DNA of 60,118 nt, filler included, from Hausera hauseri (Eukaryota), in assembly GCA_046269625.1 (NCBI GenBank). It is 9 parts of 9 records of this genome, joined end to end, with 100 filler letters (N's around TTAATTAATTAA, not from the genome) between each part and the next. Parts side by side here need not be neighbours in the genome. Positions count along the whole stretch, not along the records: positions 1 to 6,639 come from JBJURY010079547.1; 8 more parts are not named here. One strand, written 5' to 3'. Below, piece by piece: positions 1 to 60,118 of the stretch. The notes below the pieces were generated by a model. That model searched no databases. It was not told the origin of the DNA and saw nothing but the letters and a program-made list of their open reading frames with translations. The position numbers and the translations under genes were made by a program. How positions within the stretch are numbered: position 1 is the first letter of the stretch; each line of letters starts with the position of its first letter.

Positions 1-1410
1 CCATGTAGGCGATGCAATATGTCTGTTACCAACGGTGTTGGGTATGAATTGTGGATGGTGACGTTATTCAACATTCTGTAGTCACCAAAAGGCCGGTATG
101 ATTCGTCCTTTTTGAGAACCATGTGCAATGGTGATGCCCATGGTGATGTAAACTGGAGTATGATGCCTGCTTTTTCGACGTGTAGGAATTCGTCTTCCGC
201 AGCTGCTCTCTTGACAAGGTCATGCTTCCACCGGGGTTGCCTAATCAGTCGATCACATGATGTGACGAGGAAGTGTGATGTTTTCACCTCTTTCTGTGTT
301 GGTTATGTTGAGTGTTTCAACAAGTTAGGGTATTGCGCTTGCAGCAATGGTGCAATGTCAATGGGATTTGCAATTTTTATGCCCGTTACCGCGTGTATGC
401 TTAGCGTGAATGCGGGTGGACGTAATGGATTGGCCCGCTAGTGAGTTGTTGATTTCGGCAATCAACTGTGAGATCGTAGTGATCTAAGAACTCAGAACTA
501 AGGCTTGGTTGCATGATATCGGCCAGTATGAATGACCAAGCGTATGGTCGCCCTTGTAGATAAAATTGTAGGTACAGTGTACCTTGGTTGCTATGCGCGT
601 GCCATTGGCAGTTTTGCGCGACGCATGCGAGACCAGCGTATGTCTAGCGTATGCGCTAGGTATCAGCGATAAAGCCGCACCAGTATCGATTAAAAAATCA
701 AGTTGCTTCGAGATGTAAGAGAGTAGTGGTTCCACCTTGAGAGTGAAAATAGCATCGCCAATGCGTTCGCTATTTGTATATGGCAGTTGTGGTGGTTGGA
801 TTTCCAGTCGACGTGCCGTTGGTCGTCAGGGACCATTTAGTTTTTTGATGGCTTGTAAAATTTGCAGCTGGGTCGACAGATTTTTGCCCCTGGACCGAAA
901 TTATTGTGTTAAATGCAAATGTCTTGCATTTTAATATTTGCGGATGGCTTGTCGAATTGACAACCATGATGACATTTGTAGGCAGATTCGCCAAATCGTG
1001 TGAGTAAATGGCAAATTTTGAAAAATTTTCCTTTCTTTCTCTTGGGGGATTGACGCCGAGATGACGGTTTGTCCCTGGCTGGTAGATTCTTGTGCGTTAC
1101 CAGTACCTGCAGTGCGGCAATAATTGTGTCCAGCTGACTTTGCTGCGTCGCTGTTACGTAGTTGATTTTTTCCGTTGGTGCGGATTGTACGGTTCCTTTA
1201 GTGCACTCATATATTTTGTCGGCTTTTGATGCCATATCGTCCAATGTGGTGTCGGACGGTAATAGCACAAGTGCCACTAGAATTTGGTTTGACAAACTAC
1301 TCAGGAAGTAGCGCCGTAGTATGTGCTGGTTGTTCTGGAAATCCAACTCAGCATTACTCAGATCTGAGCGTAACTTTTGAAGCAGAGCAGATGGTTTCAT
1401 ATTCACTATC
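1..1410 (-). mobile_element. Degenerate CsRn1-like Ty3/Gypsy fragment (gag C-terminal half, protease, start of RT)
   Basis: 909-1406 Gag (KPSALL...ILRRYFLSSL, CHLLTRFGESAYKCHHGC) resembles the Gags at 9.0, 42.7 and 57.2 kb. 484-735 protease FLIDTGAALSLIP. 1-200 RT start (SPWASPLHMVLKKDESYRPFGDYRMLN). Slippery AAAAAAC at 840-846. Confidence 0.85.
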
Positions 1411-1414
1411 TGTC

Positions 1415-4400
1415 GCTACAACTTCTTCCTTTCCATTTTTGTTAATATAGTGTAGTTGGCGTAACTTTGGTTACTTCGTACTGTCCTCTGCCTGTACGGG
1501 TCAGTTTTAATGAGTTGCCTTTTTTGGATACTGGATAATGCACGTAAACCCAATTTTATTGTTCTAAGTCATGCGGTTTCGCTTCCTTGTCACTGTTTTT
1601 TAACTGCTCCTGGTACTCTTGAGATAATTCCTTGACGATCTCCCAACACTTTCGCAATCGCGTTTCTAACACTTTTGCAAAATTTTGTTCTAAATCTTCG
1701 GGACTGACTGAGTGTGGCGTCATTCCTAGGTCCGTGGGCAACACGGATTCACGTCCATACATAATAAAGAATGGCGTAAATCCCGTAGCTGTATGTGGTG
1801 TGGTATTAATTGCAAATTGAGTTCCTTCTAAAAATTCGTCCCAGTCTTTTTGGTCCTTAGCCACTTCTGTCGACAGTATACGTATGACAGTAGCATTTAT
1901 CCGTTTGACCATTCCATTATACTGAGGATGATTTGCAGTAGTCGTTAGTCGTTCGATTTCAAATATATTGGTGATTTTCTCAATTAATTCACTTGGAAAA
2001 TTTCTTCCTCGATCTGTGAGTATCTGGTCTAGGACCCGTATCGGAAAATAATTCTTCTCACTACTATTTCTGCTAAAGTATCGGCCTTTTGATCGATTAA
2101 TGTTATCAACTCGACGAAATCAATAGACGTCAAAATATATTTATTGTTCTTGTGAGTCGTAGGAAGAGGTTCTATGATATCCATTGACATGGCTTGCATG
2201 GGCCTATCGGGTACATCAATTGGTTTTAACTCGGCCATGTAATTTTTCGTCTTATTTTGCTTAGTTGCGCATACTTCACAAGCATTTACTCAATTTTTCA
2301 CATCAATATAGATACGCGGCCAAAAGTATTTATTCATTATTCTTTCTAGTGTTTTCTTCTAGGACATATGTCCGGCTAAGTACGAGTCATGTTCTGACAT
2401 CAGCACTTCGGTTTGTAAGCCTTTTGAAATAACTATCAATTTCCTTCCTTTTCGCTCGTACTATAAAATATCTTCATCGCTCTTGTCGTTTAAAACGCAA
2501 TATTTATGTCCGTATTTGTGTAAATGTTTCTTTAGCTGTCGTCCTCTTGGTATGACATCCTTCTTAGCAAATTCTATAATCTGCTGGATGACCTTATCCT
2601 TTCTTTGTTCTGTTGAAATTTTAATGGCATTATCTGTCGCTAAAGCGCGTTGGCGGTCTATTATTTCTTCAAGATGACTCTTCCTCATTACAGTGATTGC
2701 GTTTGTTTTCGTCTTTAATCTCGATAGTGCATCTGCGTCTACATGTCTGTTTCCCGGCTTATATTGGAATTCAATATTATATCTCGATATTTCTTCGATC
2801 CATATATTGACTCTACATGTCGGGTTATTTGCTCGGCCTTTCAAGGTCGTAACGGCCTTGTGATCAGTGACGATTATGATTTTCTGCCCGTATACGTAAA
2901 AGTTGAAGTGGCGAAGTGCCTCTTTTACATCTAGAGTTTCCAATTCGGTAACAGAATAGTTTTTCTCGGCCTTCTTCAAGGAACGTTCTCCATAAGCAAT
3001 CGGGTGCTCTAATTCTTCATCTTCTCTTTTCTGTGCTAGTTCATAACCAATGCCTGCTTTACTGGCATCTGTCTTGATTATAAAAGGTAAGTTAAAATCT
3101 GGATACCGTAAAACGGGTTCGATTGTTAATATCTTTTTCATCTCATCAAAAGCTTTCTGTTCGACGTCCGTCCATTTCCATTTAATTCCTTTTTTAAGTA
3201 GACAGTATAAAGGTGCGTTTATCTTCGAATTATCCAGCACAGGTTGCGTAGTAACCGCATAACCCTAGCCAGTGCCTTAATTCTTTTTGGTTTTGTGGTT
3301 CCATGCAATCTGATATTTTATTTAATAACGATTTATCTGGTTTCGGTCCTCCTTCTCCAGCTATGTGGCCAAGGTAGGACACAGCATTCTGAGCCCATTT
3401 GCATTTTTTGGATTTAACTTTAATCCGGCTTGTTCCAGTCTCATCAGTGTGTGTCCCTTAAGTGTTCCTTTTCGGTCCTTGATGCTATCATTACGTCATC
3501 TAAGTACGCAAAATCATGATCCAATCCCATTTGCATTTTGTTCATCATTCTTGTAAATATGGCTGGTCCGGTAGTAATACCGAACGGCATGACGTTAAAT
3601 TTGTAAACATCATCGTGTGTTTTGTATGCTATCTTATAACGATCTTCATCTTCAATCTCTCCTTGCCAGTGTCCGGATTGAAATTCCAGAGTGGTAAACC
3701 ATTTGGCTCCTGAGAGTATGTCTAAAGCATCTTTTACTGACGGTAATGGAAAGGAATCTTTCATCATAAGGTTATTTAATGCTCTGTAGTCAATACAAAA
3801 TCGATGTTTTGTGGTCCCTTTCTTCTTAACCATGAGAATTGGTGAATACCAAGATCTATAGCTTGGCCTAATTATATCGGCCCTAAGCATTCGTTCGACT
3901 TCCTTCGTTATTTTGGGTCTCAGTGAATGTAGTGGGGCATACCATTTCGGCATCTTCTGGTCTTTTAAATCTATTTTCTCGTTCGATTCTGGCTTTTTCT
4001 TGAGTGGAATAGTTAGTTTTAATGCTTTCGCTCTACCGATATCTTATTCGTCCTTAGCAATACTCAATTTATATCGGCATAATAATTCGCAGAATCGAAA
4101 ATAATACTCAGGTGAAAACATAGTTTCGAAATGAGGTGAAAATTCGACATACTTGTAAGGCTTTTCTTCGATAGTTATTGACGATACTCTATACGTGTCT
4201 CCTAAAGTAGTATAAGCATGGAGCTTGACAGGAGTTTGCGCGTTTTCAGCTATTCTGATTGGTACTCGACCGGAGTGTACTCTTGTTAATACATTGCTGA
4301 GTAATATATTCGAATCTAACGTATCTCTTGGTTCAAAATATACTGGTTGATCGTCATCTTGCTGTATCTGGGCACAAATTATCATTTCTGTTCTTGGTGG

Positions 4401-4973
4401 AATGTCTTCATCTACGGGTATCCATACCTCTCCGAGTTTTCTATCCTTAGCGTTTTTCACACCTTTATTTGGCCTGATTTTTATTAGCTTCTCTGTTTGT
4501 AAATCAATTGTTATATTTGACAGTCTCTTCAGTAGATCACATCCTAAAACTACGTCATCAGTTAATTGTTCCATAACTGCAAACTCATGATGGAAAAATT
4601 TTCCAGCTATTTGAACTTCTGAGTTCCATTTAAATATTGGTTTTGATATTTGGCCAAAAGCTCCTGTACTTCCTGGATCCTTCGTAAAAGGCGGGTATAA
4701 TTGACCTCTCAGTGTTTGATGTATTGAATCATTTTTGATGTAAGACATCTCAGATCCTGTATCGATTAAGACATAAACTTCCCAATCTTCGATAGTGATT
4801 TTGGCGAAAGGTCTTCCTTCTATCGCTGTCCCGAAACAGTTTGGTGTATCCTTTGAGCGTTTCAGTGCCGATATTTTATGTCCATTGATTCGGGTTTCGG
4901 GTGAGGATACTATATTCTCCGATAGGTGTCTTAATTCTTCGTTTGGATATAATTCGTTATTTTCTATGTGCAA
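1415..4973 (-). mobile_element. pol: Degenerate Ty3/Gypsy pol (PR-RT-RNaseH-IN), lineage A
   Basis: Protease VLIDTGSEMSYI (4044-4973). RT RFCIDYRALN, VMPFG, AYLDD (3444-3953). RNase H KTDASKAGIG, VTDHKA, DADALSR (2461-3240). Integrase HHCC remnant, MSMDII, TTPHTATGFTPFFIMYGR and a GPY/F-like tail (about 1415-2400). Interrupted by stops and frameshifts. Confidence 0.93.
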
Positions 4974-4996
4974 CTCTTCCGCTTCGTGTGTACTAA

Positions 4997-6639
4997 TTAA
5001 TGGTTCTCGATTGTTAGTGTGTAATTATTCTGGAAGATTTTTAACCTTAAATTGTCCCAAACCGTTGATCTAGTTTCTATGTTCCGAGGTTCTCTCGGAG
5101 AATACAACATCTTTGGACCATCTGTGTATTGTCGGTAACACATTTTCCGTAGGATCCCGTAACGTTTCGTTCCTTCATAAGGATCTTTTACATTAATTGT
5201 TCTTTTATAGATTTCCGTCTGATATGAACTGATTGATCGTTTGTCACAGTCTTCATAAGTTGGAGCGGTGGAAGGTAACATAGGTAGTGGTGCTTTAATA
5301 ACAGAATACGCCTTATATTTATTTATTCCTGAAAGTACTTCTTCTCCCTTAGTCTCGTCATCATATGAATCGCTTCTTCGTGTCTTATGCTTTATAAACT
5401 TCCGCCTTCGCAAAAACATAGGTCTCCTTCTATCTTTACGGTTGTGATATCCGACGTGACGTTCTACGCCTGATATCCGTCTGTTTTCGTCGTATGCATT
5501 TAAGAATTTTCCAAAGGGTGTCATGATCGCAGTTAAAATCATGCAAGAAAATCCAGTTAACGTAAATATTTCATTCCCATTAATTACGGCTTGGATAACG
5601 GCCTTGATCATTTGTATCAGAACATATATAGCTAAGAATCCGGATGTGGTTTGTCCGAAAATTAAAAATCTTTCCCAAATTTTGTAGAGTATTTCTGTGG
5701 TTACTCGCTGATAATGATTTACGCCAAGTAGAGATTCCCATTTAGCCTGGTATAGTGTATCATCTACTACAGAAGCTATGGCTCGGTTTAATTAATGTGT
5801 TCGCTGTCTCGGAAAAGCGAGAAATTGTCTAAAAGCCTCAATTTCCTTCGGCCTGTATATACCTTTCGATGAAATATCTTGAAATTTATCGTCTGTAATT
5901 CCTTTTGCGAGATTTGTTCCTGTCAATTTATTTGGAACGGCAATAATACCTCCATTTGGCAAATTAATCCAGTCTGTTTCACTTTGTCTAAACATGGGTT
6001 CTCCTAGGCTTGCCTTACAATTCTTAAGGATAGACGGTTGGGTAGCGTTATGCAGTAATATTCTTGTTGGCGGTGTAGCTAATCTCGGAATATTTTGGTA
6101 AATAACGGGAAGTTCCTGAATGCAACGTTTTTCTTCCACGTTGATGGGTACATCTCTCTTTTCGCATTCATAGGTTAGCAATACTTCGCCCGTTACCCGA
6201 CCGAAAATTCCTTCTCTCATTGGAATTATTGGAAAAGCCAATTCTGGGTTTGCATATATCAGAGCCATTTTAGTTCTCATGATTTCAGTATCCAATTTGC
6301 AGTCATTCATTATCATCTTGTGATATAATTCCGTTATTCCAATTTGTACTTTATAGTAGAAGTAATCATCCTTACTTTTCAAGTAATCTTCGATACGTAC
6401 ATTTTGTGTTTCTAGATTATACGTTTTTGCACTTATTTACGTTTCTGCTACGAAAAACGCCTCACAGTTTGTAGCAAACATCACTACATCACAGCGAGAA
6501 ATCATCTCTTTTTTAATAAATTTCAATCCATGAAGATCCAAAATTAATATAGTAGGTGTAGAGTGTTTAGATACATCCTCGCGTGTCCTCGAATTGGTCT
6601 TTGATTTGTCCACATATCGCTTCCCTGTAGTCTCATTAA
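4997..6639 (-). pseudogene. Chuvirus-like (class III, gB-type) envelope glycoprotein, C-terminal part, truncated at contig end
   Basis: One frame with two internal TAA stops links 6639 to ORFs 5792-6382 and 4997-5611. Motifs NVRIEDYLKSKDDYFYY, NP...GIFGRVTGEVLLTYEC, CIQELPVIY, PPTRILL, KGIY, then KIWERFLIFGQTTSGFLAIYVLIQMIKAVIQAVING and a second hydrophobic stretch. Order and spacing match chuviral glycoproteins as I recall them. Confidence 0.75.
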
Positions 6640-6739
6640 NNNNNNNNNNNNNNNNNNNNNNNNNNNNNNNNNNNNNNNNNNNNTTAATTAATTAANNNNN
6701 NNNNNNNNNNNNNNNNNNNNNNNNNNNNNNNNNNNNNNN
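6640..6739. other. Artificial contig linker N44-TTAATTAATTAA-N44
   Basis: Identical 100-nt spacer with stops in all frames. It also occurs at 17867-17966, 22968-23067, 30043-30142, 34787-34886, 39236-39335, 45038-45137 and 52605-52704. Confidence 0.98.
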
Positions 6740-7489
6740 TGCGATTTCACCATCAATATTCGTGTAAATGGCTTCGAGAAAATAATTCACCTTGATCGCA
6801 TTTAACTCCTGTACTGAGTCCTCCAGAATACCAGCGATTTCGGGTTTGTGATTTCCCATAAACTGGTTAATATTCCTGGTTTTTGCAGCGTGTTGTTGCG
6901 GTTTAATTGTATATTCGCGTACTCTTTGACTAAAGGCATTTCTGTTTGCTACTCTTTTCCGTGGTGCTTTTTCGTGGTTGAGTTTAGTTGATCCTTCTCC
7001 CTTGCTTTTTTGAAACTTTGTTGTGTCATTTGATGTTGAAGGGATTGGTAGTGTTTCTGCTGCTGTTGTTGCATTGGTCATCATCATGTTGATTGATTCG
7101 TTTAAAATTTCGCGTTTTCTTCTCGACTGAAATTGACCTAGGTGTGGTCCATATTTATGTAGAAATTCCCCGTATGTTGTTCTTTCGGACGTTTGGCGTT
7201 GGGAACAGACATAATATTGGTTTCCGTAATGTTTAATGCCATAGTACTACTGTCCGCTTGGCATGAGTTTGAACGACTGACATAATGATGACCATGATGC
7301 ATTTGGTGTGGATGATATTTGATCTAGTTTATTTGATGATGATATTTGCACTAATATTTCCCTTTTGCTTATATCTTGAAATTGATTGATATGTTCCTTA
7401 TTTTGGGCATAAAACTCCATGTATGGTATGTCGTTTAGAGATCGACATACTGGACATATATATCCTTTATTTGATTGATATTTTCCCAT
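6740..7489 (-). pseudogene. Possible N-terminal fragment of a Polinton/adintovirus-type DNA polymerase B ORF
   Basis: Cys pair (CPVC), then NAFSQRVREYTI...INQFM....EIAGILEDSVQELNAIKVNYFLEAIY, a pattern seen at the N-terminus of invertebrate Polinton-type PolB ORFs. The catalytic region would lie beyond the contig end. Confidence 0.4.
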
Positions 7490-8750
7490 TTTTGATGATA
7501 CATCTTTAGATCATCATGTTGCGTATTACTGCAATATTTGGTATACGTTTCACACTAAAAATTCTTTTTACATTTATCAAATGGAGAAATTAATCTTACT
7601 TTGAAAATTGTAAAACGTCTTAGCTACTGTATAATAATAATAATTGATTTTGTTTCCTTATTATATATGTATTTAACACACACATTTTATGGCCTTATAT
7701 TACCTTTTAATTAATCTTTAATGCGTGTGTAGGATAAAAATCGATGTACTTTAAAAGACATCCATAAAACTTAAAAAATAATCGATATTTTTCGAAGGTA
7801 TTTGTCTAAAACAGCATAAAAGTTCATGTGTTCAAAGTTCACATGTACATCGAAAATTCGTTTTCCTCTTCTGTACGTTGATGGAAATGCATAAAAACTT
7901 TCCGACGCACATTATCCTACGCAGCAAAAGATGACCGATCGATCGAACCCGGTCACAATGAATTTCGATGAAAAAGTATTTCGGTTTCCAAAGGGTATAC
8001 CTTTGACAATTTTCGATGTTTTCCATCGTTGTTCCGTTCGGGAATGGGTTATTTCTATTCGGATACCATTATCGGATAGCCCACGTCTTGGGCTTTCATT
8101 TACTGTGCTACTCGACGCAGGCCATCTTCATCAGTGCACACACACGGGTATCTGTAACGTCATCGGTGCATCGTGCACCCGTCTTTCCGGTGCCGTTTGG
8201 CTATTCACAGGCCCACTGTTTTGGGACCATCAACCGTTGGTCGCCAACGTTTCCCACTTCCCCACAAACCATATGCGGGTTCTGGATCACTTTTTTGCCT
8301 GAACTGCTTTCTTCCACCAAGCATCCATTCGACTTCATTCCTTTGCCATTTGATGCGTCTTCCGTGCTCCATCATTCCTATGCGCCACACATTACCGTGC
8401 ACCACTTCCTTCTAACATCCATATTTTTGTGCATTTCTCCTGCTTCCGTGGTGCACCGTGCACCGGTGCACGTGTGTTTTTTTTGGAATCTCCATGCCGG
8501 AATCTGCCTGGCCGGTGCGAGTGTGCGCATCAAGCACGCTTCGTATTGGATGCAGGGGGACGGAGAAGGGGGCCGGAATGGGTGATCCAGAACCCGAATT
8601 TTTATACTACTGTTGTCGTGTGGCGGTCTGGACTCGTTCTGTGACTAGTTCTGCGACCCGAGGGTCGCCTCGCCGGGGGTCTTGGCGCTCCCGCGCCTGT
8701 TGCGGCGCATTATACTCCCAACATATTGAACGATCATTTAACCATTTTCA

Positions 8751-8960
8751 TCGTTTTTAAATAAACATATTCATACACACACCGGAAATTACAAAACATT
8801 AGGGCAACATATATACACCTCAATATGCAACGACGTCCATCTGTCTGGCTTTTCTCTATTTCTGAATGGACTCATTATTCATCCCGACGATCTGCTATGC
8901 TCTTTTAAATCACATTCTTCATCTCTCTATCTCAATCTAATTCCTAAACTTCGTGGTGGC
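8751..8960 (+). CDS. Ubiquitin-like domain ending KLRGG, in frame with Gag
   Basis: Stop-free frame: NKHIHTHTGNYKTLGQHIYTSICNDVHLSGFSLFLNGLIIHPDDLLCSFKSHSSSLYLNLIPKLRGG|SDP, continuing into Gag. It is not in the ORF track because there is no upstream start codon in frame. Confidence 0.7.
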
Positions 8961-9997
8961 TCTGACCCCAATTTTGAGGAGATAAAAAAATCCCCAAACA
9001 TAACATTTGTTTCTCCAACTCCATCTTCTTTCTGGCATTTTCAGTGTGTAGACTTTTTCTTTGATAATCAAAACTCTTGCAGAAAATGGGTAGATTTCCA
9101 TGCAAAGTGGCTAGCCTCACATAAAATCACTGATTCGTTTCAAAAGGCCAACGGTCTACTTCTCCATCTGCCACCCAATATAAAATCCGGCATAACTAAT
9201 CTTTCTGACATCTTTAGTCATTTTGACCCATACAAATTACTACTTGACACCATAACCACATCATCCGAGCCTTCATTAGACTCAATATTACAAAAATACT
9301 TCAACGAAAACGCTCTTGACCAGCAAAAGCCCTCAGAATTTCTTCGCATCTCACTTTCTCAATTAAACTCACTAGAAGTAAACCAACAAGATAACGCGGA
9401 TCTTCTTCGACGTTATTTCTTATCATCCTTGCCAATCTAAATCCGCGCACTCCTTACTTTTGTGGAGAATTCTACGTCATTCGACAAACTGGCACAACTT
9501 GCGGACAAATGTTACGAAACTTTTCATAACAATAATGCACATAAACCGATTTCAGCTCTGCAAGTAATGCAATCACCAACAATAGTTGCACATCTACAAT
9601 AAGCAAACTCATCAAACAACGAGAACAGTATAGTCTATCAAATTCAAAATCTGCAAGCCGAAAATGCGGCAATACATTAAGCTATATCGGCCATCTCTAG
9701 CAAAATGGACGCTTTGTCTCTACCGTGTCGCGCTCGGTTTAGCGCAGATCGAAGCAGACAGTCGTCTGCAAACTCTAGACACGGCCAGTCACCTTCGAGA
9801 CAAATGGTGTGCTATTATTACACCAAGTTCAATCGAAATGCCAAAAAATGCTGTATAGGCTGCAGATTCTATACGCAGTGTTTCCAATCATACGATGCGG
9901 TCTGCATCTTTCACAGCAAGTTTAAAGACAGTGCAGAACGCTGCTTACCTAGGTGTAAGTTTTACACACAGAAAACTTCAACATTTTCATATATTCT

Positions 9998-10045
9998 AAA
10001 AAACGCCTAAAGCCGCCAGAAATTACGGCAAATTCTGGCAAAGGC
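9998..10045 (+). promoter_or_regulatory. -1 ribosomal frameshift signal at the gag/pol junction
   Basis: A_AAA_AAC at 9998-10004, then GCCGCCAGAAATT...AATTCTGGC stem. The same layout occurs at 43727 (+) and 57019-57025 (-). Confidence 0.75.
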
Positions 10046-13000
10046 CATTTTTTCCGTTTTGACTGCCGTACTCCTACCAATAGCGTTTTCGTATTGGATG
10101 CTGCACTCACATCTTTTCCTCACCACACAAAATTTATGATCGATTCAGGTTCAGCTGCTTCATTACTACCTTTATCTTTCACATCACTAAAAATGCTCCC
10201 TACATCTACTATACTCTTCACCGCAAATGGGCAAGCATTACGTATTTTTGGTGCCGCAGAAATGTCTTTCACCCTGCCACATTTTTTTGATGTCTTTCAA
10301 TGGAAGTTCATTGCTTCAAATATTAAAACACCAATTTTAGGGCCTGATGTTTTATCGCACTACAACATACTAGATGATTGCAAGCAGCATCGTGTGATTA
10401 AAAGTACAATCAATCATACAAAATCACAAAATATTGCACCACTTGCCGCACAGTTGGCTGTAGCTCCAAAATCTATATTAAAGAAATCTTTTATTAAATT
10501 AGATAAATTACATGTTCGTAACTCCGACTGTGACGCTTTCATTCATACAGTAACAACAAAAACAAGTTCCAACACCGACGCAACCTCTCACCTCACCTCC
10601 CCATTAATGCAACTAGAAACAACTCTTCGTGACTACATCATAATTTCTTGTCCTAGAGCATTAAAGAAAAACCAAAATTTCAAGTCTGCTTTTACGACGT
10701 ACCATCACATCGTCACTGAACACCAAACAGAAGGTTAGGCCACTTTCTCCTCGCAGACGCAAAGCTGTGGAATCAGAGTTCAAAGAATTAGAAAAGGCAG
10801 GAATTATAAGACGATCAAAGTCACCTTGGGCCTTACCTCTACACGTAGTGCCCAAGAAGGATGGTACTTTCAGGCCCTGTGGCGATTATCGCCAATTAAA
10901 CACCATTACGGTAATGGACGCATATCCATTACGGCTTATCAGCGATATCTTACACAGACTCAATGGCAACACCATATTTTTGTCCATCGATCTTCATAAA
11001 ACCTACCATCAGATACCTATCTTATCTGCTGACATACAGAAAACAGCTGTGTCAACACCTTTTGGCCTTTTTGAGTATGTTTTCATGACCTTTGGTCTGC
11101 GCAGCACTTCTCAAACATTTCAAAGGCACAATTCTTGCTGGTATAAACTTTGAATTCCCTTACATATATGACATTCTCATAGCTTCGTCATCTCCTAAAC
11201 AATATGCAGAGCGCTTACGCATAGTTTTCCAACGCCTTCACTAAAATAATTTAGAAGTAAATCTCGCCAAATGTTCTTTTTTCCAACACAAGATCTATTT
11301 CCTTGGTCATGTCATCACCAAATTTAGCCTCTCTACTCAGCAATACCGCATAACTCAACTTAAGAACATCAAATTGCCACGAAAAACAACTGAAATGCGC
11401 TCGTTTCTTGGCACACTCCAATTTGTTCACAAATACGTGCCACACTGTTCTGAATTAACCGCACAGTTTGCCTTTTTATAGTCTGGAAAGAAGAAACAAT
11501 TAATTCACTGCACTCCCTAATTTGTCAACCAGTTTGACCATTTACGTGAAGGTTTAAAAACTATCGAAAGTCTAGTATACCCTAAGACTGACGCAGAGCC
11601 GATATTAACCATATATGCCTCTACCACAGCAGTTGGCGCAACACTGCATGAAATTTCCAATGGCGTCAACGAGCCTCTGGAATTTTATTCGCGGAAACTT
11701 ACATCACCAGAAAGTCGTTACTCAACTTTCGACAGAGAGCTCCTAGCTATAGTATTAGCTCTAAAACATCTCTCACATTTGCTCATTGCCAGGTCTTTTA
11801 CGATCCAAACTCACCACAAACCTCTTATTCACATCGTGGATACGAGAACTCCTTTATCTCGACAAGAACGTCACATATCGTACTTGTCGACATTCGATTT
11901 TAAAATGGTACATATTGCAGGCACTGACAATTTGGTTGCCAATTTTTTGTCGAGATCCGTTAACATCATTGGAGTCACTCCCATTTTCTCAAAAGCAGTG
12001 CTTCAGCAAAATGTACCAGCATAGAAAATTCTTAAGTCTTTTAAATGGCACCAAATCATCGACGGAATAGCCTATGATACTTCTAAACCCGGTACTCACA
12101 AACCAATTTTGTCTTCACATTTGCAGAAAACTGCATTTCATAACGTACATTCTCTTCATCATCCGGGTGCCAAAGCAACCTTTTGTCTTCTGCAACGTAG
12201 CGTTATATGATCATCCATAAGATCAGACATACATGTATGGGTTAAGGAATGCGTGGCATGCCAAAAATTTAAAACTCACAAGCATCTGAAGTCACCATTA
12301 TATCACTTTCCCTGTACGTCGAGTTTTGAATCCGCTCATATAGACCTAGTCGGTCCTTTTTGTCCTGAAAACGGCCATCAATTCATACTCACAATGATTG
12401 AATTTTCTTCTCGATGGTCAAAAGCCATTCCATTACGTTCCATTAATACTATCGCTGAGGTTTTCATCAAAACGTGGATCAGCAGATTTGGCTGCCATCG
12501 TTTCATAATCACGGACCAAGGTCCACAATTCAAGTCATATCTCTTTAAATCTCTAGTCAATCGCTTGGTGATTAAACATATACACACTTCTCCATATTAT
12601 CCCCAAGCGAGCGGTGAACTAGAAAGATTCCACCACACAATGAAGACCTCACTTAAAATCCTTACTGAATCACACAGCAACTGGATAGCTCTTGTACCTC
12701 TTGTCCTGTTTGGATGGAGAAACACACCCTCCACCACCACGGGTTGTGCACCAGCTGAAGCATTGTTTGGAACACCGATTCGAGCACTTTTTATGTTAAC
12801 TGAACTGAACGGTACACCAACAGACGAACTGATTCAAAATGTCCAAGATCACTTCGTTACACTAAACAAAGAATCATTTTGCAAAATAGTAAATTATATC
12901 AAATCAAATATACCAAATGATTTGTATACTGCCAAGTTTGTCTGACTTCGAAATCCTTCACCTGGTGGTTTCCAACCACGATACGTTGGGCCATTCAAAC

Positions 13001-13733
13001 TCCTTTCTTTATCGTCTCGCACAGTTAAAATTCCTAAAAGCGGTAAAGAACAAACTGTACCCATTACAAATCTAAAACCTGCTTTCTTTGTGGATACTGT
13101 CCTCATGATACACAAAACAACCCCAACTCCACTTGCACTTTTCTCGATTCTTTTGTTTCTACGCCGTTTCTTGCTAAATCAACAAATCATCAACCACAAT
13201 CTGATCTAATTCCCACTTTTCTTTCTAATCTTTCCACCCCTACTTCCAATTCTTTATCTGTTACTTTTCATTTCTCATATTCTACAGCTAACGTCCCATC
13301 CACTATTTCAATTTCATGATTTCATGCTTCTCTCGTCTCAATTCCTACCCCTCTCTTCTCATCTTCCAACTCTACTTCACATTCTCCACTTTTACTTCTC
13401 ACTCTTCACTTTCCATTTCTCATTCCTCACCCTCTTCCTCCATTTCTGCTTCAATTAATCGTTCATCACAACTTTCACTTGCCTCAACAGAAACAACACC
13501 AAACAATCAACCCAAAAATACGACAAAGCTTTCACCCCTAAGTACATCTCTACAAACAAACACACCACATGAAAACAGAACACTCAGTTACTTTCAGTAA
13601 GTACAGTAGAGAGCAAAATATGAACAAAGTACAACGCCTAGTACAAACAAAAATCGAGTAGAATACAAATTCTTTTTCCTTTTTGCGATTTTTCTCTTTA
13701 TATTTTCGCTCTGTATTATAGTGCCATTTTTAC

Positions 13734-17038: not shown

Positions 17039-17866
17039 TCAGAAACGCCCAATAGAGAACATTGATTGTGGCTCTTTGGTAGTTGGACCTTTCTTACTAT
17101 GGAACTTTTGATTTGATGGTAAACGTGAAAAGAATGAGTGACTAAGTGCTTCGGCAAAAGTGATTCTTGATTTTGGATTATAGTCTAACATTCGAGAAAT
17201 TAGATCGAAAAGATCGATAGTGTCAACATTTTCGGGTTTACAGTAATTACCGAGTCTACTACAATTTTTTCTAACAAATTTAGCATTCTTTTCACTAGGA
17301 AACCAAAGTAGACTACCATCGTCATGAAAATAGCCCTTTAAAGTAGTTTTAGTCATTTTATACGGAATTCGGACAATTATTCGATTCATCATTGCCAGAT
17401 GTTCGCGGTTGTCGTGAGCCTGGAATAAAGTATGACCCGTAAATAATTCAAATAGTATACAGCCAATTGAACAGACATCACATGGTTGATACCAGCCTAA
17501 TTCAAGTATAACTTCCAGAGAACAATAATGTCTGGTTGACACAACACTTGAATGTTTTTCATGATTGAATGTTTCCGAACCAAAGTTGATCCAACGGATT
17601 TCTGATGATTTTACCACATTATACTGTTTGGATTTTGACGACGAAATAGCATTGTAATCAGAATTGACAAACAAAATATTTTCCGGTTTTAGATCAGTAT
17701 TGGTTAGATTATTTTCGTGTAGGAAATTTACAGCTAAACACGTCTGATATCCGATGTGACGAACATGTTCAATGGGATAAGGAATATAATTATTTTCTTT
17801 TAAAACGGTAGATACACTGAGACCGAGTAGTTGAAAGGAAATACATATATGTCCATTGTAATTGAA
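17039..17866 (-). CDS. CLK: CLK/LAMMER dual-specificity kinase, C-terminal part, with altered catalytic motifs
   Basis: Open frame from the contig end: FNYNGHICISFQLLGLS...NTDLKPENILF...INFGS...STRHYCSLEVILELGW...HDNREHLAMMNRI. Confidence 0.88.
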   Translation of the reverse strand, partial: FNYNGHICISFQLLGLSVSTVLKENNYIPYPIEHVRHIGYQTCLAVNFLHENNLTNTDLKPENILFVNSDYNAISSSKSKQYNVVKSSEIRWINFGSETFNHEKHSSVVSTRHYCSLEVILELGWYQPCDVCSIGCILFELFTGHTLFQAHDNREHLAMMNRIIVRIPYKMTKTTLKGYFHDDGSLLWFPSEKNAKFVRKNCSRLGNYCKPENVDTIDLFDLISRMLDYNPKSRITFAEALSHSFFSRLPSNQKFHSKKGPTTKEPQSMFSIGRF

Positions 17867-17984
17867 NNNNNNNNNNNNNNNNNNNNNNNNNNNNNNNNNN
17901 NNNNNNNNNNTTAATTAATTAANNNNNNNNNNNNNNNNNNNNNNNNNNNNNNNNNNNNNNNNNNNNAATTATAATGATTACCCC

Positions 17985-20900
17985 TTGTTAATACCACTAT
18001 TAGTTAAAGTATATGGTAAGTATGTTAATGCGGAACTTGATACTACTACTCCGTTGACTCGTATAAATCTGCGATTATATAGACGAATTACACATTATAT
18101 ACCCGAAGCGTGTGGGAAATTAGATCTAACTATAGGTTATATAGATGTTACCTGTTATGCCAACCCACAAGAGTCATATTCTGATCTTATTATTGGTTTA
18201 GATGTACTATACAAACTAACAGGAGCGGAACTCAAAGTCATCGGCAGATCAATTGTATTCAACTGCGAAGGTTACCAGGATACCAAACCTCAACCCAATG
18301 ATCAATGGTGGTTTGCGCCGGGAGAAGAGACTGTTCCACCCTTACTAAATTATGTTACATTGAAGCAACTAAGTGAACAAAATACGGAGTCTACATTAGC
18401 ACGAAAAATAACCCAAACACGAGTAATGGAAATACCTACAGTTAACACTCCATCTCCGATTTTCGGGAGTCCTTTTAAGTTACCCACAATAACCCTGTTG
18501 ACGCTGATATTGCTTATAATATTTGGATGTGCGGATGCCCAACCAACACATATGACAACAACTACAAATGCGTGGAGCAGTACAATCCTGTTATTGTCAA
18601 TATTTGCTTACTATATGTTTAATAGCCGTATAGTAACGGACGATGAGGAAGTAGATAATTCTTCCTCGAATGATCAAACAAGAAAACAAGTACCCTTACC
18701 TTCGGTAATAGATATGGACACTAGTCCAGTAAATAGTATGGTGAGAGTACCACAGAAATTACCACGAAATTCGTTTCAAGATGTACCAAGACCTATATCA
18801 ACAATGACAATATATCCTGATTTAATGGAAATGCAGACTACAAGCAATATGCAACCACCCGTGAGTTATATCGCCTTAAGTAAGAAGTTGGAAGAAGCTG
18901 AAGAAAATATTAAACGATTAAGAGAGGAAATTGAAAAACATCAACAAGAAAGAAGTCCAAAATTCCCTGAGTATAACGACATTAAGCTACGAAAAATAGA
19001 CCACACTATGCAAGCACAACGTAAAGAAATTAAACCAAATGAACAGATTTATTTCGAATTACCTCAACAGAAAGGAGGAACTTACCACCACTCCCATTAA
19101 CTAGAGAGGCAGCTAATCGACACATGTTGGAAAATTTTCTGTTAGCTATACCAGAACGCATAAATCACGCACAACAATTACTCAAAGGACCTATAAATAG
19201 TGTAACAGAATTAAAAGACTTCCTTAGCAAATACCACGAAAAGTGTGGAATAACAGATGAACAATATAAACCCATAATAAAGCTAATTTGTGAGGATCTA
19301 AAATTAGATTTTAATGTCTTAACTGCCCTGGATAAATTTTTCCTGAAAATAAGTTGCGAAGAAGTGTATTACACGATTCCTGATCTGGCTAGTCCAGGAA
19401 AACTGCAGTATCATGATTATGTAGCACTAGTCGAGCAATAAAAATTTTTAAACATCATAACATAAATATAGGAGGAAGAGAACTTATTAACGGGGTAGAA
19501 GAAGTTAAACGAGTTTGGAATGGAAAAATGGGACAGCCTCTAGATAGTAATCTTCCCCCTGAACAGTGGACGAAAATAGATCGACTACAATTCGCGGGGA
19601 ATAGCATTAAATATATGGACGAGATAGCTAACGAAACAAGACCAATGCACATACAAGATCTTCAAGAAAAAGATAAAAAACGAGAATCATCAGGCATCAA
19701 AAGTTACTCCACATTCTCCCTGGGAACGTTGTTCCTTATGGGAATATGTTTACTCTCCATGATTAATGCAACAGAGGCAATTGAGACCACACCTCATCGC
19801 TCTAATTCCTCATGGACTTCATTGTTGTTATGGTTGTTTTCGTTGTTAATGATGAGCAAATTCTTTAATAGCAATGATGATGAATCTTATGAACGCCTCT
19901 CCAAACGCAAAGAACCAATAAAAGTTATAAATTCTTTGAATAATACACTCGATGACAAAAAACAAGAAGGAACCCATATTGTTAACCAGGAAACGGATGA
20001 AATTTCAAAACAAGATACGGAAACCATGTCTAGTTGTATATCTACTAATATACCGATACAAAAACAATCGGAATACTTGAGACAATCACCCCTAGGGTTC
20101 CCCTATGAGTATCAATCAATACACGATTGCATAAGTTACGATAAATTAGCAAACGATTTAAGGGAAATATGTGGAATAAGGTTGCTATCAGCCCAAACAT
20201 TTACTCCAGTACAATTGATCCAATATATTCATACCATTAATTGGAAATTAAGTAGACCTGATTTGGTTGATTACGATGTTAATGATAATGGGGAACAGTG
20301 GACCATAATGAAATGCTCAAACCATTTACTAAGATACGAACCTCTGTTCATTGGCAGTAAACAAGAACGAAAATTCCTTACTCATTATTTCGGAAAGGAA
20401 ATCCCACGAATCTCTACTAGTAATACACTTACTTTATTACAGCGAACGTCTCCAGTAAGCAGTAAGTATGTAGATCAAGAGAAGGCTAAAGAAATAGGAG
20501 AAAGATGTGTGGGACTGTTCCAAAATTTTGGAGGAGAACTGGTGAATGTAAGAACGTCCAATGCGTTTATAGTTAATTGTTGGTTGACTTATACATTGAT
20601 GACAATTAAGGACGAATTAAAACAGGAAGAGTTAGAAGAAATAGAGGAAGATGAAATCCGAATATTGTGGAATATTTATCTGTACAGAGACATACATACA
20701 TCACTAACTGAGGAGGATAGAGAAGAAATTAACCAATTGGAACAAGTAAATGCTAGGGGGACGACAGGCAGGATAAATGCATTATGTTATCGATTACTGT
20801 TCTGCCTACTAGATGAAAATCATCAGAAAGTCGAAATGTATAAAAAGGAACGAGATGATGTAATAAATAAGTGCCAATCGAAACTAGATGAAAAGAGAAG

Positions 20901-22967
20901 GAAATCGAATGATACGATGAAAGAGATACAACAATTAGACATTTTCGGAGAGCAAAACACATGTACTTATCTCAGTGAAGAACCTTCAAAAATGAAGAAA
21001 AGGGAAGATTCGTTGTGCGATAGCGGCAAAGTCGAAGAAAATCATGACTTAACGGAACCAAACAATAATACCAAGATGGATAATTTCGTAAAGATATCCG
21101 AATATGAGGAGTTCAAAAAACCCATAAATAACGAACCAATACCTAGCAAGGGTTTGTGTATATTGACGGGTAGGGAATTCTTAAAGATTACCAGTGCTAG
21201 AAAATTTGATTGGAATAAATGTTTTGGAGAACAGAGGATAGTGTTCGCTCCAAATTTTAATCGAGATATACGCAATTGTAAACAGGAATTTGAAATACCT
21301 GGTGGCGTGGATAATACAATTCTAATAGTTGATGAACCCATAGTAAGCGCAATGGAGTCTCCTTTTCGATTCCCCTATGGTTACCAAACTTTCGTAGAAT
21401 GTATGAATTACGATAAACTAGTGAGGATACTAAGGATGAATAGTGGACCACAAACAGATCAAAGTTATAGTTCTGATTTATATAAAGAGACTTCATCTAC
21501 ATTGAACCAACCCGATTATAGATATATAAGAAAATATGAACCTCTGTTTATTGGTAGTATGCGAGACCGAATTCTTTTCACTAATGCTTCAAGCGAGAAA
21601 GAATCACAACTACCTAATATAGACATGTTTATGTTATTACGACAGACATCTCCATTATGTGAAAGGTTCATAACTCAAGAGAAAGCTAGGGAAATAGGAA
21701 AGAAATGTATCAGTTTGTATAAAAATTTTGGAGGAGAATTGGCAAACAAAACAACATCTGATTTATTCATGGTTAATTGTTGGTTGACCTATGTAATAAT
21801 GACAATAAAAGACGAATTAACAAAAGAAAAAATAGAAAAAATAGAGAAAGAGGAAGCTCGAATACTGTGGAATGGCTATTTGCTTAGGGATGAAGACACA
21901 CCCCTAACAGAGGAAGATAATATTAAAATTAATCAACTAGAACAAGTGAATACAGAAGGATTGACCGGTCGATTAAATGCTTTACGTTATTGAATGTTGT
22001 TCTGTATGCTAAATGGAGACCAAAATATGGCAAAACCTTTTAGAGAGGAACGTAAAGAGTACGTTAGTAATACGAAGGTACAGGAAAGAGAGTCGTCGCA
22101 GAATATATTTCGTATGGTAAGTAATACAATAAAATTTTGGGCAGATAAGAATACAAATAACGAAGTCAGTAAGAATGAGATGAATCACAATCAGAAGATA
22201 TCCCCAAGTCTTTCATCAAAGGAAACAAGTTTAGGCCCTTCGTCTCATCGAACGCTAGTTGAAAAACAACTTGAAAAACAAATACAATCTAGTAACGATT
22301 ACTCTAATTTGACACATATGATGATGGAGCATAAAAACAAGAATACACCTCACGAATGTTCTGATCATTTAGGAAAAAGATTACCATACCCAGGTCAAAA
22401 GGAGGATTGGGAAGGCATTGATCCTACATATAAACCTCCATCGAAAAAAGGGAAATATAGTTGTCCCAAGGAAATATTACAAAAAACCACGTCGACACTG
22501 AGGAATGGGAAAAGTTACCAGAGTCGTTAAAAGAGGCAGTGGAAGAATTAAACGAGAACGGTTGCGAATGGGAACCATATGAAACTAATAAACGTATAGC
22601 ACCAGAGCTAATAAAGGCAATACGAGAAGATATAAATATGACACCTAAGGAAACGACTCATGAGACAAAGACAATCCTAACCATTATAACGAAAACGCTG
22701 TAACCTAAGGGAGTATATAATTACACAATGGCCAATGAGATAATTCCTCATTTTAGATTAATAAATAGCTTAAGGATAAGTCCAGCAATCCTCCCATCAT
22801 TGAGGGAAGAAATCAACCAAGTGTTATGCAGACTAGTACATCAGCCACCACACTTCCCAGTAAGTTCAACAAGAATATGTGCAGAAGAAAAAGATATTCC
22901 AAACACTATAAAGAATTTACGCATTATAGCCGACAGGAATGAACAATGGTTAGATGATATCGAACCG
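17985..22967 (+). mobile_element. Decayed large polyprotein: retropepsin-like domain, two double-hydrophobic modules and a duplicated ~220-aa domain; probably retroelement accessory region
   Basis: VKVYGKYVNAELDTTT...DLIIGLDVL at the N-terminus. Same-strand ORFs 17985-19100, 19124-19441, 19528-21993, 21994-22530, 22461-22703 and 22728-end are separated only by stops or frameshifts. A-rich coding strand. Confidence 0.5.
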
Positions 22968-42424: not shown

Positions 42425-42643
42425 CCATTCCACCTCTACCTTTTTGTTAATAATAACCTAATGCAAACCGTATATGTCACATAACGTATGGAGACATTAC
42501 AGTTATACGCTCTCATTTATAATACCGCCGCCTAAACTGATTTCTACCTAACTCACAACGGTTTCATTTTAACTAACCGCCCACACATCATGGTCCCACA
42601 TTACCATCTATGTATACACGTCAATCCTAGAATCCGCGGTGGT
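42425..42643 (+). pseudogene. Ubiquitin-like domain ending RIRGG, in frame with Gag
   Basis: PFHLYLFVNNNLMQTVYVT*RMETLQLYALIYNTAA*TDFYLTHNGFILTNRPHIMVPHYHLCIHVNPRIRGG|MISPP, continuing into Gag ORF 42590-43018. Confidence 0.65.
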
Positions 42644-45037
42644 ATGATCTCCCCACCAGCTAGTGACACCACCGATAAGGTGACCACAAAACCAAAATAC
42701 ATTTTCTACTACCCCAAATCAAACCACCCACCTACTTCAACCGACACAAATTCTTCTCACAAAAATCCTATCAGTACCACACCACATTGCACTGAATACT
42801 TTATAGACAATGAAAAGTCTAGCAAAACCTGGCTCCACTTCCATCAACTCTGGTTACAGTCCAACGGTATCACAGACTCGTTATCCAAAGCCCATAATCT
42901 ACTTTACCTTTTGCCAAACTCCATAAAGGCCTCATTCCATAACCTGCTGGACACTTTTCAACACTCTGACCCTTATACCAAATTGTTCGATGCTGTGTTC
43001 GACAAAACCATCAATTGATTCAATAATGCAGCGTTTGTTCAACGAAAATGTAATGGGAATACAAAAACATAGCGATTTCCTACGCACCTCATTGGCTTAC
43101 TTACGTTCTCTTGGCGTCACCAGAAAACATAACTTTGATCTACTTCGACCATATTTCCTTAACGCTTTACCAATTCAAATCGGGGCTTTGTTTACCGTTT
43201 TTGAAGATTCTACAGCCTTTGATAAGCTAGCTTAATTGACCGATAAAGCACACAAAGTCTTACAAATCCAATCACAGCCTATCATATCAACCGCTATCAC
43301 AAATGATGACGATCAACGACATACATCTGTCGAACACCAATTAAATCAATTACGTGCCGAAAATGCAGCACTCCAACACAATCAACGCCATCAACAATAA
43401 ACTGAACGAGATTTCATTCACTTGACGTAAGGGTTTCATACGTGACCGTAACCATTCAGTATCTCGTGGTCGTTCACCTTCACCTGGATTATCACTGATT
43501 TGTTATTACCACGATAATTTGATAGCAATGAGAAAAAATGCCATCTAGGGTACAAATCTTATGATCAAAGATACTATACGAACAACGTCATTTGCATATA
43601 TCGGACAAAATTCATACATAATGCACGCAAATGCATTCTAAGTTGCACGTTTAAAAATAAATCCCACCATGCAAATGACGAACGTACAACTTTCATTTTT
43701 AACAGTCGCTCAGGTTCCCCGTTTTCAAAAAACTGATTTCGCCGCCAGTATTCTTGGCGAATCCTGGCAAAGGCAACCTATCTAATTCCTTTTGCCGACA
43801 CGCTTCATTTGCAGTTTTCACATTAAAAGCTGATATCTCTAATCCTAACATTCAATCCATAGATTTTCTCATCGATATTGGTGCAGCGATATCACTACTT
43901 CCACTTTCTTTTCCGGTTCAACATTCTTCATTGAAAATAAAACCTTTATACACTGCCTCTGGTCAAGCTCTTCGTATTGCCGGAACCTGCAAACTATTTT
44001 CACTCTACAACACTTTTCCTCGTCATTTTATTGGACGTTTACATTCGCTGACGTCCAGACTGCAACACTTGGCTCAGATTTCCTTTCACACTATAATTTA
44101 CTAGTTGATTGTAACCGACTCTGTTTGAAAGCAAATACATCTGTAAACCATAACACAAATATATACAGTATCACAACAACAACAACAACACAGTCCACAT
44201 TAAGTAAGCCATCTATTTTAAAACACTCGGAACTTCCTTCTAATTTTAATAACAACCAATCACAGCTCAAGGTTGACAATAACAATCTGGTATTTTCTGT
44301 CAAATCATCGAAAAATAACACCTAATACTCAAACATGGTTCCGGACCCGACCATCTTACTCCAAACTCCACTTGATTCCTTATTAACAACTAATCACCAT
44401 ATACCAAGGACTGCTGGAAACCCGGTTCATCATCAATTACAATATTCCAACAACTACCCACAAGTTTACAACAATTTGTCCATACTTTTTGTCCTCGTAT
44501 ACTTCTGAAAGATAGAAATTTCACCCCAGTAAAAGGCATTTACCATCATATAATTTCAAGACATCAAAGGCCAATTAGACAAAAGGTCCGTCCATTGTCG
44601 CCGAGACGCAGACAGGCAGTAAAAGCTGAATTTATGGAACTAGAAGAACCGGATATCTTCCGCAGATCTAAATCACCATAATCTTCGCCTCTCCACGTCG
44701 TACAAAAAAGGTAGATCCTTCCGACCATGCGACGATTACCGCCTACTTAACACTTTAACCACAATTGACGCATATCCACTACCATTAATAAAAGACATTA
44801 CATCGGCTTAACACTACCTCCGTTTATTTGACAATCGATTTATCTATAGCTTACCACCAAATCCTTGTCGCACCGGAAGACATCGAGAAAACTGCAGTTA
44901 CCTTACCTTTCGGTCTTTAGGATTATCTATATATGCCTTTCGGTCTCCGGAATGCCGCGCAAACTTTTCAACGACACATCGATTCAATACTTTCAGATTT
45001 CACCTTTGCGCATCCATACATCGACGATATTTTGGTT
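42425..45037 (+). mobile_element. CsRn1-like Gypsy copy 2 (UBL-gag-PR-RT, cut by contig end), degenerate
   Basis: Gag YFIDNEKSSKTWLHFHQLWL...DLLRPYFLNALP. AAAAAAC at 43727-43733. Protease FLIDIGAAISLLP. RT ending HPYIDDIL at the contig end. Confidence 0.9.
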
Positions 45038-45305
45038 NNNNNNNNNNNNNNNNNNNNNNNNNNNNNNNNNNNNNNNNNNNNTTAATTAATTAANNNNNNN
45101 NNNNNNNNNNNNNNNNNNNNNNNNNNNNNNNNNNNNNACCGAAGAAGAATCTACAGATAAACCTGGTGTCATAGCAGCTATATGGAGTATTACAGAACAA
45201 GAAAAGTCATTACTGCAAAAACAACAAAATGACGAACAAATTAAACAAATTAAGGAGTATTTAAAAAGGAAAACGATACCAAGTGATATTAATCTCTATA
45301 CTCAT

Positions 45306-47792: not shown

Positions 47793-47890
47793 TACATGAT
47801 AAAGCCGCAAAATTTTTAGCGACCTATGTAAAGAATAAACAATCAAAATATGACAATATCCTGTCATTTAAAACCGCTTGGCTAACGCTA

Positions 47891-49204
47891 ATGTTTTTAC
47901 TTTTAGTCCAAGAATGTGCAGAACGTACAGAAAGGCCCAATTCCTTCTATAACCATATTATATCTAATCTATGGGCCACTTCCTGCAAAGATTATTGCTA
48001 TTATGGAAAGGCTGTTTTCATTCCTAACAACCTTAAAGGATATTCAGTCCAACAAAGAAGTAGTCTTATAGTCAAATTGCGACAAAACTCAACCAATCTC
48101 TCAGATCTAATAGATATTTCTGAATATACGTATGCCGTATATATTTCAGTCGCAAAAGGAACCATCCAACTTAAGAGCAAATCACATACCCAAGGAATCA
48201 CTGATGTAATGGAAATCCTAAACCGGATAACAGTCCGATTAGATCCTCGATTGTATATTAACGCCACCATCACTATACGAACATGTGAAGGACCATTTCC
48301 TATAATTTATGTGGAAGTAATCAAAAAGGATCAAACACCGCGTTTGGATTACCAAATCCCAAAGTTTACAACCCCCAGACCCAGAGAAATTGACGTAGCG
48401 GAAGGACTGTCATTTACAAGAAGACCAATAATGTCAAAAGAAGAGTTGATAATAATGGCTGTGAATCCAATATATTTATTCACCCCAATCAGGAATACAG
48501 AAACAACCATTGCTGAAATAACCTTAATGAAATTAGATGGTGAAATTATTGTGGACGAAATTTTATGTCCTAGAGAGAAAATCGATAATTATAATAGCCA
48601 TGTGACCGGACTAAAAGAAGACCATATTGTTGGGAAGAGGGATTCTTATTATGCAGAACCTTTTCTAAGAAAAATGATTGTTGGGAAAGTGATTGTAGGA
48701 ATTGATGTTTATCACACCTTTGCCACCACTTTCAGATATGACTACAATAACCTATTGGGGATTAGAGAACTTCTATACCATAATAATGTCAACCCACAAC
48801 GAAAATACACAGCCAAACAAATCCTTACCCAATATAATGGTAATATATATCCTCAAAGGACTCGGGAAAAAGCCCTGACTATATTGAAGATTTATAATTC
48901 GATTCCTGAATACCAGAATGAACAATTTGAAAAACTAACAAGTTCAGAAGAACCAATGGATATACAATCAATTTCCGATTATCCAAATTCATCAAATTCG
49001 ATAATGTCAACCCTACCTATTAACGATCCAAAGCCTATTCAGTTGATAAAAGATTGTTCTATTAATCTTGAACCACTAAAATCAGCTAGTTCTATCGAAT
49101 CTATTGTCGTCGATCTTACAAAGACAAAAAAGAAAAGGACCCCAAAAACCGAAACAATCACCTTAAAAAAACATCAAAAAGAAAGGACGCTTATTACATA
49201 TTAG
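47891..49204 (+). CDS. Accessory ORF with REX4/ISG20-like DEDDh exonuclease fold, catalytic residues apparently lost
   Basis: IAEITLMKLDGEIIVDEILCPREKIDNYNSHVTGLKEDHI...FLRKMIVGKVIVGID resembles LARVSLVD..G..LYD.YVKP...V.DY.T.VSGI...HL...L.GKILVGH. The expected DxE position reads MAVNP. Confidence 0.65.
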   Translation: MFLLLVQECAERTERPNSFYNHIISNLWATSCKDYCYYGKAVFIPNNLKGYSVQQRSSLIVKLRQNSTNLSDLIDISEYTYAVYISVAKGTIQLKSKSHTQGITDVMEILNRITVRLDPRLYINATITIRTCEGPFPIIYVEVIKKDQTPRLDYQIPKFTTPRPREIDVAEGLSFTRRPIMSKEELIIMAVNPIYLFTPIRNTETTIAEITLMKLDGEIIVDEILCPREKIDNYNSHVTGLKEDHIVGKRDSYYAEPFLRKMIVGKVIVGIDVYHTFATTFRYDYNNLLGIRELLYHNNVNPQRKYTAKQILTQYNGNIYPQRTREKALTILKIYNSIPEYQNEQFEKLTSSEEPMDIQSISDYPNSSNSIMSTLPINDPKPIQLIKDCSINLEPLKSASSIESIVVDLTKTKKKRTPKTETITLKKHQKERTLITY

Positions 49205-60115: not shown

Positions 60116-60118
60116 TTC

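Follow-up and report, generated by a model that had tools for sequence, protein, structure and literature searches.

An env-pol fragment at the end of a contig

The window analysed here, a stretch of 60,118 nucleotides, consists of short, repeat-rich contigs of the Hausera hauseri assembly GCA_046269625.1, joined at 8 places by an artificial linker (N44-TTAATTAATTAA-N44) across which adjacency is meaningless. The contig under study spans positions 1–6639. Its minus strand carries the C-terminal half of a class III fusion glycoprotein (env) immediately before the pol region of a Ty3/Gypsy long terminal repeat (LTR) retroelement, with a gap of <2 kb and no gag signature between them. The fragment is colinear with relatives that encode the same parts in a single open reading frame (ORF), the copy is decayed, and the contig ends inside env. 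An initial annotation had described a chuvirus-like glycoprotein directly upstream of Gypsy pol with no gag between, and this description stands: the glycoprotein matches the Pfam family PF24664 (E 2.6e-46), and pol follows in the order protease (PR), reverse transcriptase (RT), RNase H (RH) and integrase (IN). What that annotation overlooked is the contig end at 6639, which falls in the middle of env at a linker (6640..6739, no strand). An ORF at 6740–7246 was tried as the upstream part of env and ruled out; it sits past this linker, on another contig.

The glycoprotein half (5501..6637, minus strand) contains a central helix, a beta domain, a membrane-proximal region and an anchor; the N-terminus is cut by the contig end, and domains I/II are largely missing. 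The env frame runs from 6637 to 4997 on the minus strand, with internal TAA stops at 6439 and 5794. Read through with X at the stops, it matches PF24664 (Monjiviricetes_fusion) over profile positions 245–602 of 653, and its two stop-free pieces each match the family alone. As the initial annotation held, the ectodomain is followed by hydrophobic, membrane-type sequence (residues 330–353 and 357–375 by hydropathy) and a tail of about 170 residues reaching 4997. An AlphaFold2 model of the 379 residues of ectodomain and anchor, built on an alignment of 106 sequences with X at stops, has a mean predicted local distance difference test (pLDDT) score of 86.4 and shows a 48-residue central helix, then a beta domain. 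Searched with Foldseek against PDB, this model gave 7 matches at E<=0.001, and 39 of 39 listed rows are herpesvirus glycoprotein B (gB). Against BFVD there were 45 matches at E<=0.001 (best E 2.7e-16), topped by chu-like and related negative-strand virus glycoproteins, which bears out the suspected class III fusogen. A wide VIA structure search ranked gB of herpes simplex virus (HSV) 1 first (Z 6.8, root-mean-square deviation 7.8, 241 aligned), short of the Z of 8 that is the tool's mark for a clear match; the first four rows were gB. The gB likeness was found by fold searches only; a sequence search of PDB with the env read-through returned nothing significant (best E 0.18). Judged from its sequence and predicted fold, the glycoprotein half is class III and gB-like.

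Pol continues on the same strand. The linker end, an aspartic protease (LIDTGS at 4769) and a beta-rich segment lie at 4044..5024 (PF13975, E 9.3e-6), with 25% identity over 222 residues to residues 1416–1623 of P0155, one of the relatives treated below. The beta-rich segment appears to occupy the place of the Burro dUTPase-like domain, a label given by position alone from excerpts of PMC6431247. Next come the reverse transcriptase (3248..4043; YLDD; PF00078, E 1.5e-19), with a frame change near 3453–3424 by tblastn, and the connection and Ty3/Gypsy-type RNase H (2461..3247; PF17919, E 5.4e-33; PF17917, E 6.7e-29), with a frame change near 3248–3228. The integrase (1440..2460; H2C2 region, core and C-terminal part) is colinear by tblastn with P0002, P0003, P0152 and P0155 at 35–40% identity; it is broken by stops and a frame change near 2035–2026 and ends abruptly at ~1440. 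Domain searches and tblastn agree on a PR-RT-RH-IN order of Gypsy type. PF17917 and PF17919 mark RT and RNase H as Gypsy-type, the named RT matches are mostly Ty3/gypsy polyproteins, and no Pao-specific Pfam match was found in pol. Because the colinear path holds eight in-frame stops (6439, 5794, 4046, 2463, 2361, 2292, 1558 and 1444) and three frame changes inside pol besides that between env and protease, the focal copy is dead.

A second, unrelated Gypsy element (partial gag, protease and RT start) occupies 1..1430 of the minus strand and was recognised by tblastx to Gypsy copies at 9327–10966 and 55989–57690. It is joined at ~1417–1440, as judged from tblastx and from a depth step and loose ends in a public sequencing run (X1), and the 3′ end of the env-pol element has been removed by this junction. 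Decayed, env-less Gypsy copies of another clade lie at 1–1430, 8742–13050, 42536–45037 and 53659–58038 of the window.

Relatives, other copies and the env-protease junction

A phmmer search with env against 1.84 billion representatives gave 539 matches at E<=0.001, and 19 of the 150 listed matches, picked as top-ranked or long, were scanned for domains. An aspartic protease follows env in the same ORF in 9 of the 10 best matches and in 11 of the 19 scanned (P0009 weakly). Four of these proteins (P0002, P0003, P0018 and P0025) run on through RT, RNase H and integrase, and the cluster members P0152 (4844 residues) and P0155 (3003 residues) likewise have the order env-PR-RT-RH-IN. By tblastn, colinearity of the window with the single-ORF relatives extends from env to integrase, with 27–47% identity per segment. 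The canonical order is found in two of the 19, P0077 (env after integrase) and P0044 (env after BEL-type DUF5641); both are much weaker matches (for P0044, E 8e-20 versus 1e-63). Hydrophobic, signal-like segments precede env in P0002, P0003, P0011, P0025 and P0155. Motifs described for Burro also occur among the relatives, namely ankyrin in P0152 and a weak Bcl-2 match in P0008. In P0152 and P0010, several aspartic protease domains follow one another in tandem. The label of P0002, a complete Gypsy env-pol polyprotein, assigns it to a bacterial metagenome-assembled genome, probably through host contamination.

Of the 11 env-protease relatives, 4 have gag or CCHC markers upstream of env, and none has them between env and protease. 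These markers are CCHC knuckles in P0002, P0010, P0011 and P0025, with a Retrotrans_gag match below cutoff in P0011. In the focal contig, the signal peptide, the N-terminal ~240 env profile positions and anything further upstream are unassembled, and the absence of gag is uninformative because the contig stops inside env. Most likely, the capsid gene is missing only because the assembled sequence ends there. By analogy with such elements, gag would lie upstream of env, past the contig end, and is therefore not expected between env and pol. It is also conceivable that the family is a gag-less, non-autonomous one, or has gag in a separate upstream ORF, and obtains its capsid from helper elements. 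In favour of this, the contig shows no gag, and in 7 of the 11 env-protease relatives no gag marker can be recognised within the ORF. The break inside env removes the force of the first point, however, and the in-frame markers of the other 4 relatives, together with the N-terminal Gag of Burro (PMC6431247, in excerpt), make this alternative highly improbable.

The stretch between the env hydrophobic segments and the protease is a basic tail or linker of 167–169 residues (167 in 4997..5500, minus strand) without a gag signature. The probability of this frame being open by chance, from base composition, is ~6e-6. The tail has no CCHC motif and no Pfam or NCBIfam match; there was no usable atlas match and no homolog among 67 candidates or 240 collected proteins, blanks that weigh little, and a single-sequence AlphaFold2 model (pLDDT 42) is too poor to read. 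Anchor motif and protease active site are about 303 codons apart, so the claim that there is no room for a capsid gene was overstated, whereas the lack of a gag signature there was correctly noted. This length and the basic character of the tail would suit an ENV-GAG-POL order, in which a short and diverged Gag is made up of the tail and the start of the protease frame; such an order, with a short Gag, has been reported in two oribatid mites (PMC13524379). Against this, both a CCHC motif and a Pfam gag match are lacking, and the linkers of relatives are as long (129–389 residues from anchor to protease in 11 relatives; 13 were looked at, of which 2 lack the motif) and unconserved, with gag upstream. 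Since relatives with an upstream gag have equally long, unconserved linkers, the tail is unlikely to be a gag, and the chance that the element has this order is slight.

The env and protease frames overlap by 28 nt (4997..5024, minus strand), the protease frame being open from 5024 (stop at 5027) and offset by -1 from that of env; the initial annotation had the overlap right and put the opening at about 5021. Evidence on this junction also comes from X1, which alone is listed among public sequencing runs as containing the stretch; no RNA run is listed. X1 yields 18,063 contig pieces on 400–6639, most at 85–95% identity and covering 30 of 30 bins, and the family is therefore multicopy. Two distinct X1 contigs (records 7 and 8, among 8 matches listed) bridge the junction between env tail and protease; judged by aligned length, env and protease share a single frame in both. 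With these contigs and the single-ORF arrangement in 9 of the 10 best relatives, the env-pol order is seen to recur.

The initial annotation left the choice between one polyprotein and a frameshift. If env and pol were separate ORFs in the active element, expressed by programmed ribosomal frameshifting or by splicing, the 28-nt overlap would be functional: both frames are open across it, -1 is the usual direction of frameshifting, and a frameshift would reduce Pol relative to Gag-Env. We consider this very unlikely. No slippery heptamer of the form X XXY YYZ occurs within 5600–4800, the relatives are single-ORF, two other copies are in-frame by length, and the three other frame changes in pol show that decay yields such offsets. 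Because the relatives are single-ORF, the two X1 copies are in-frame by length and a slippery site is lacking, the frame change in the sequence is most likely damage specific to the focal copy, and the polyprotein is the part of the earlier suggestion that survives. One further frame change within an unconserved linker of ~0.7 kb would be unremarkable.

Do env and pol belong together at all? Of 89 RT-bearing proteins compared, the 6 best RT matches include 5 that had been found via env. Since, in addition, the relatives are colinear from env to integrase, their sequences indicate that env and pol most likely belong to one element. The opposing possibility is that deletion or misassembly joined an unrelated Gypsy pol to the glycoprotein of an endogenised chuvirus or to a tandem copy's env. 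The contig is indeed a mosaic at its other end (~1440), and endogenous chuvirus elements often lie beside Gypsy fragments (PMC10084718, in excerpt). But env is nearer to env-pol polyproteins (26–34% identity) than to viral glycoproteins (up to 24%, BFVD matches), env-matching proteins also match pol colinearly, and other copies bridge the junction. Chance juxtaposition is thus largely refuted, and we give it next to no weight.

Second membrane protein after integrase and other features of the window

P0002, P0003, P0152 and P0155 each end in a signal-to-anchor extension after integrase. The corresponding region of the focal copy was lost with its 3′ end, and such an extension is seen only in the relatives and in an 884-residue ORF elsewhere in the window (45138–47789, plus strand). 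The integrase of this ORF is 46–49% identical to those of env-pol polyproteins, and the frame then continues into a signal-like stretch, an FN3-like beta region (an atlas lead of 0.87, where the mark is 0.9) and, after a Thr-rich stalk, a transmembrane segment. By sequence, the ORF represents a second family of the env-pol group; its extension and those of the relatives do not match by blastp. One could imagine that the lineage encodes a two-glycoprotein entry system in one polyprotein, in which the gB-type fusogen precedes pol and a second membrane protein, of type I, follows integrase, in a host that may lie outside Nematoda, Bryozoa and Platyhelminthes. In such a system the second protein (signal, FN3-like beta domains, Thr-rich stalk and anchor) might serve in attachment or as an immune decoy, as accessory glycoproteins of herpesviruses do. 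We regard this as a tentative and rather unlikely proposal. No fibronectin-like env partner in Gypsy polyproteins was evident in a limited literature search by title and start of abstract, which does not imply absence from print.

A 492-residue ORF at 47726–49201 (plus strand), without a Pfam match, follows this integrase-membrane ORF and is possibly an accessory ORF of that element; after it lies a 21-nt tandem repeat (~49134–50169). Farther away, the plus strand at 17967–22527 carries ORFs of 377, 132, 858 and 178 residues with paired hydrophobic stretches and an internal repeat. They have no convincing Pfam or NCBIfam match and no blastp match to the collected proteins, and by eye they resemble linker regions of giant polyproteins. 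On the minus strand, a protein kinase domain (PF00069) in one intronless frame lies at 17042–17866; it looks CLK/LAMMER-like by eye, with decayed motifs, and is likely a processed pseudogene. Another minus-strand frame, at 59354–60118, reads first through an ARMT1-like and then through a NAT10 helicase-like piece. Both are divergent and probably represent either neighbouring gene fragments or a chimeric pseudogene. With best matches at ~35% identity, they gave no pointer to the host lineage.

Interpretation and comparison with known elements

With high probability, the locus represents the central part of a dead copy, and the element that it comes from is a multicopy Ty3/Gypsy LTR retroelement of gag-env-pol type, Burro-like and akin to the errantiviruses sensu lato with "HSV/gB-type ENV" of Chary and Hayashi. 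An active member of the family would encode one long polyprotein: Gag (capsid, CCHC), an internal signal peptide, the gB-type ectodomain, an anchor, a cytosolic linker, and PR-RT-RH-IN. The internal signal peptide would send the ectodomain into the lumen of the endoplasmic reticulum; from the anchor on, the chain would be back in the cytosol, with Pol tethered at the cytosolic face until freed by the element's own protease. A trimeric fusogen on budded particles could then permit spread from cell to cell.

Several points weigh against this reading. The gag, LTRs and primer-binding site of the focal family are unseen, the contig covering only part of env to ~1440, and upstream gag markers are absent from 7 of the 11 env-protease relatives. 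The structural scores of env to gB are modest (TMq and TM-scores of 0.22–0.38; Z <8), and the model was built on a same-family alignment, which means that its BFVD match is not independent of the Pfam match. The X1 argument for a single frame relies on aligned lengths of two short contigs, not on their letters, and X1 may be the source sample. A quick RT tree (82 rows, matches aligning over <130 residues dropped; no BEL/Pao reference was included in the trees) joins the window RT to the env-pol clade, with weak support (SH-like approximate likelihood ratio test, SH-aLRT, 81) and a long branch. The window RT shares 41–48% identity with its nearest relatives. In the RNase H tree the position of the copy is unplaced; the clade assignment is soft. 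Finally, a cytosolic Pol requires that the second hydrophobic segment (residues 357–375) does not cross the membrane.

The locus adds one divergent, multicopy family to the published gag-env-pol Gypsy elements with class III env, and gives independent support for env and pol travelling together as one polyprotein in that group. If the host lies outside Nematoda, Bryozoa and Platyhelminthes, the range of gag-env-pol elements with gB-type env would be widened. It will be of interest how one polyprotein sets the ratios of Gag, Env and Pol, how its membrane topology is established, and whether infectious particles form; the intact natural elements in the literature address this biology better than the dead fragment described here.

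The architecture itself is already known, and the novelty implied for the env-pol order in the initial annotation does not hold. Arkhipova and Yushenova (2019; PMC6431247) describe the planarian element Burro, with env in frame between gag and pol. Its env matches mononegavirus fusion glycoproteins, and decayed Burro fragments occur in a related species. Burro and GYPSM1 are giant Gypsy-like LTR elements, with an extra segment between PR and RT and one huge polyprotein. The closest relatives found share Burro-like size and motifs (4844 residues and ankyrin; weak Bcl-2), a likeness drawn by description. In the focal copy, any MATH, BIR, Bcl-2 or ankyrin cargo of the Burro type would fall in a region outside the contig. 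The focal copy differs in being a 5.2-kb broken fragment with one protease domain, and its RT, for all its distance from the nearest relatives, joins Burro-like polyproteins that do not bear the Burro name at SH-aLRT 81. The single frame of the Burro type is offset in the focal copy, in-frame by length in the two X1 copies, and a single ORF in the relatives.

Chary and Hayashi (2026; PMC13524379) report that gB-type ENV, in the order GAG-ENV-POL, is the only kind carried by Ty3/gypsy elements in Nematoda, Bryozoa and Platyhelminthes, the nematode case being credited to Sacco et al. (2022). The supplementary rows listed (72 term occurrences in all) are ENV_HSV throughout, with 10 elements from bryozoans, 9 from flatworms and 15 from nematodes, and a chuvirus-like glycoprotein beside gypsy pol is also reported. 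The focal copy resembles these errantiviruses in having a Ty3/Gypsy pol with a class III env directly before it; their set consists of intact elements, whereas the focal copy is dead. The searched passages do not discuss single-ORF expression, and a closer named relative could stand in the sequence supplements or figures of that study. We set the focal family, which is divergent and apparently unnamed, against the named Burro and errantivirus elements by description.

Other known systems are less similar. Anakin comprises BEL/Pao elements with a chuvirus glycoprotein (PMC7642597, and excerpts of PMC12440569 and PMC13524379) and shares the glycoprotein family PF24664 with the focal copy. Its pol, however, is of BEL/Pao type with env after integrase, whereas the focal pol is Gypsy-type (PF17917/PF17919) with env before protease. 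The canonical Errantivirus of the ICTV Metaviridae profile (PMC7879559) shares the PR-RT-RH-IN order and the presence of an env, but places env downstream of integrase; the focal env lies upstream of protease and is class III. By its sequence, then, the locus works like, and probably is, a gag-env-pol Gypsy element with a gB-type glycoprotein.

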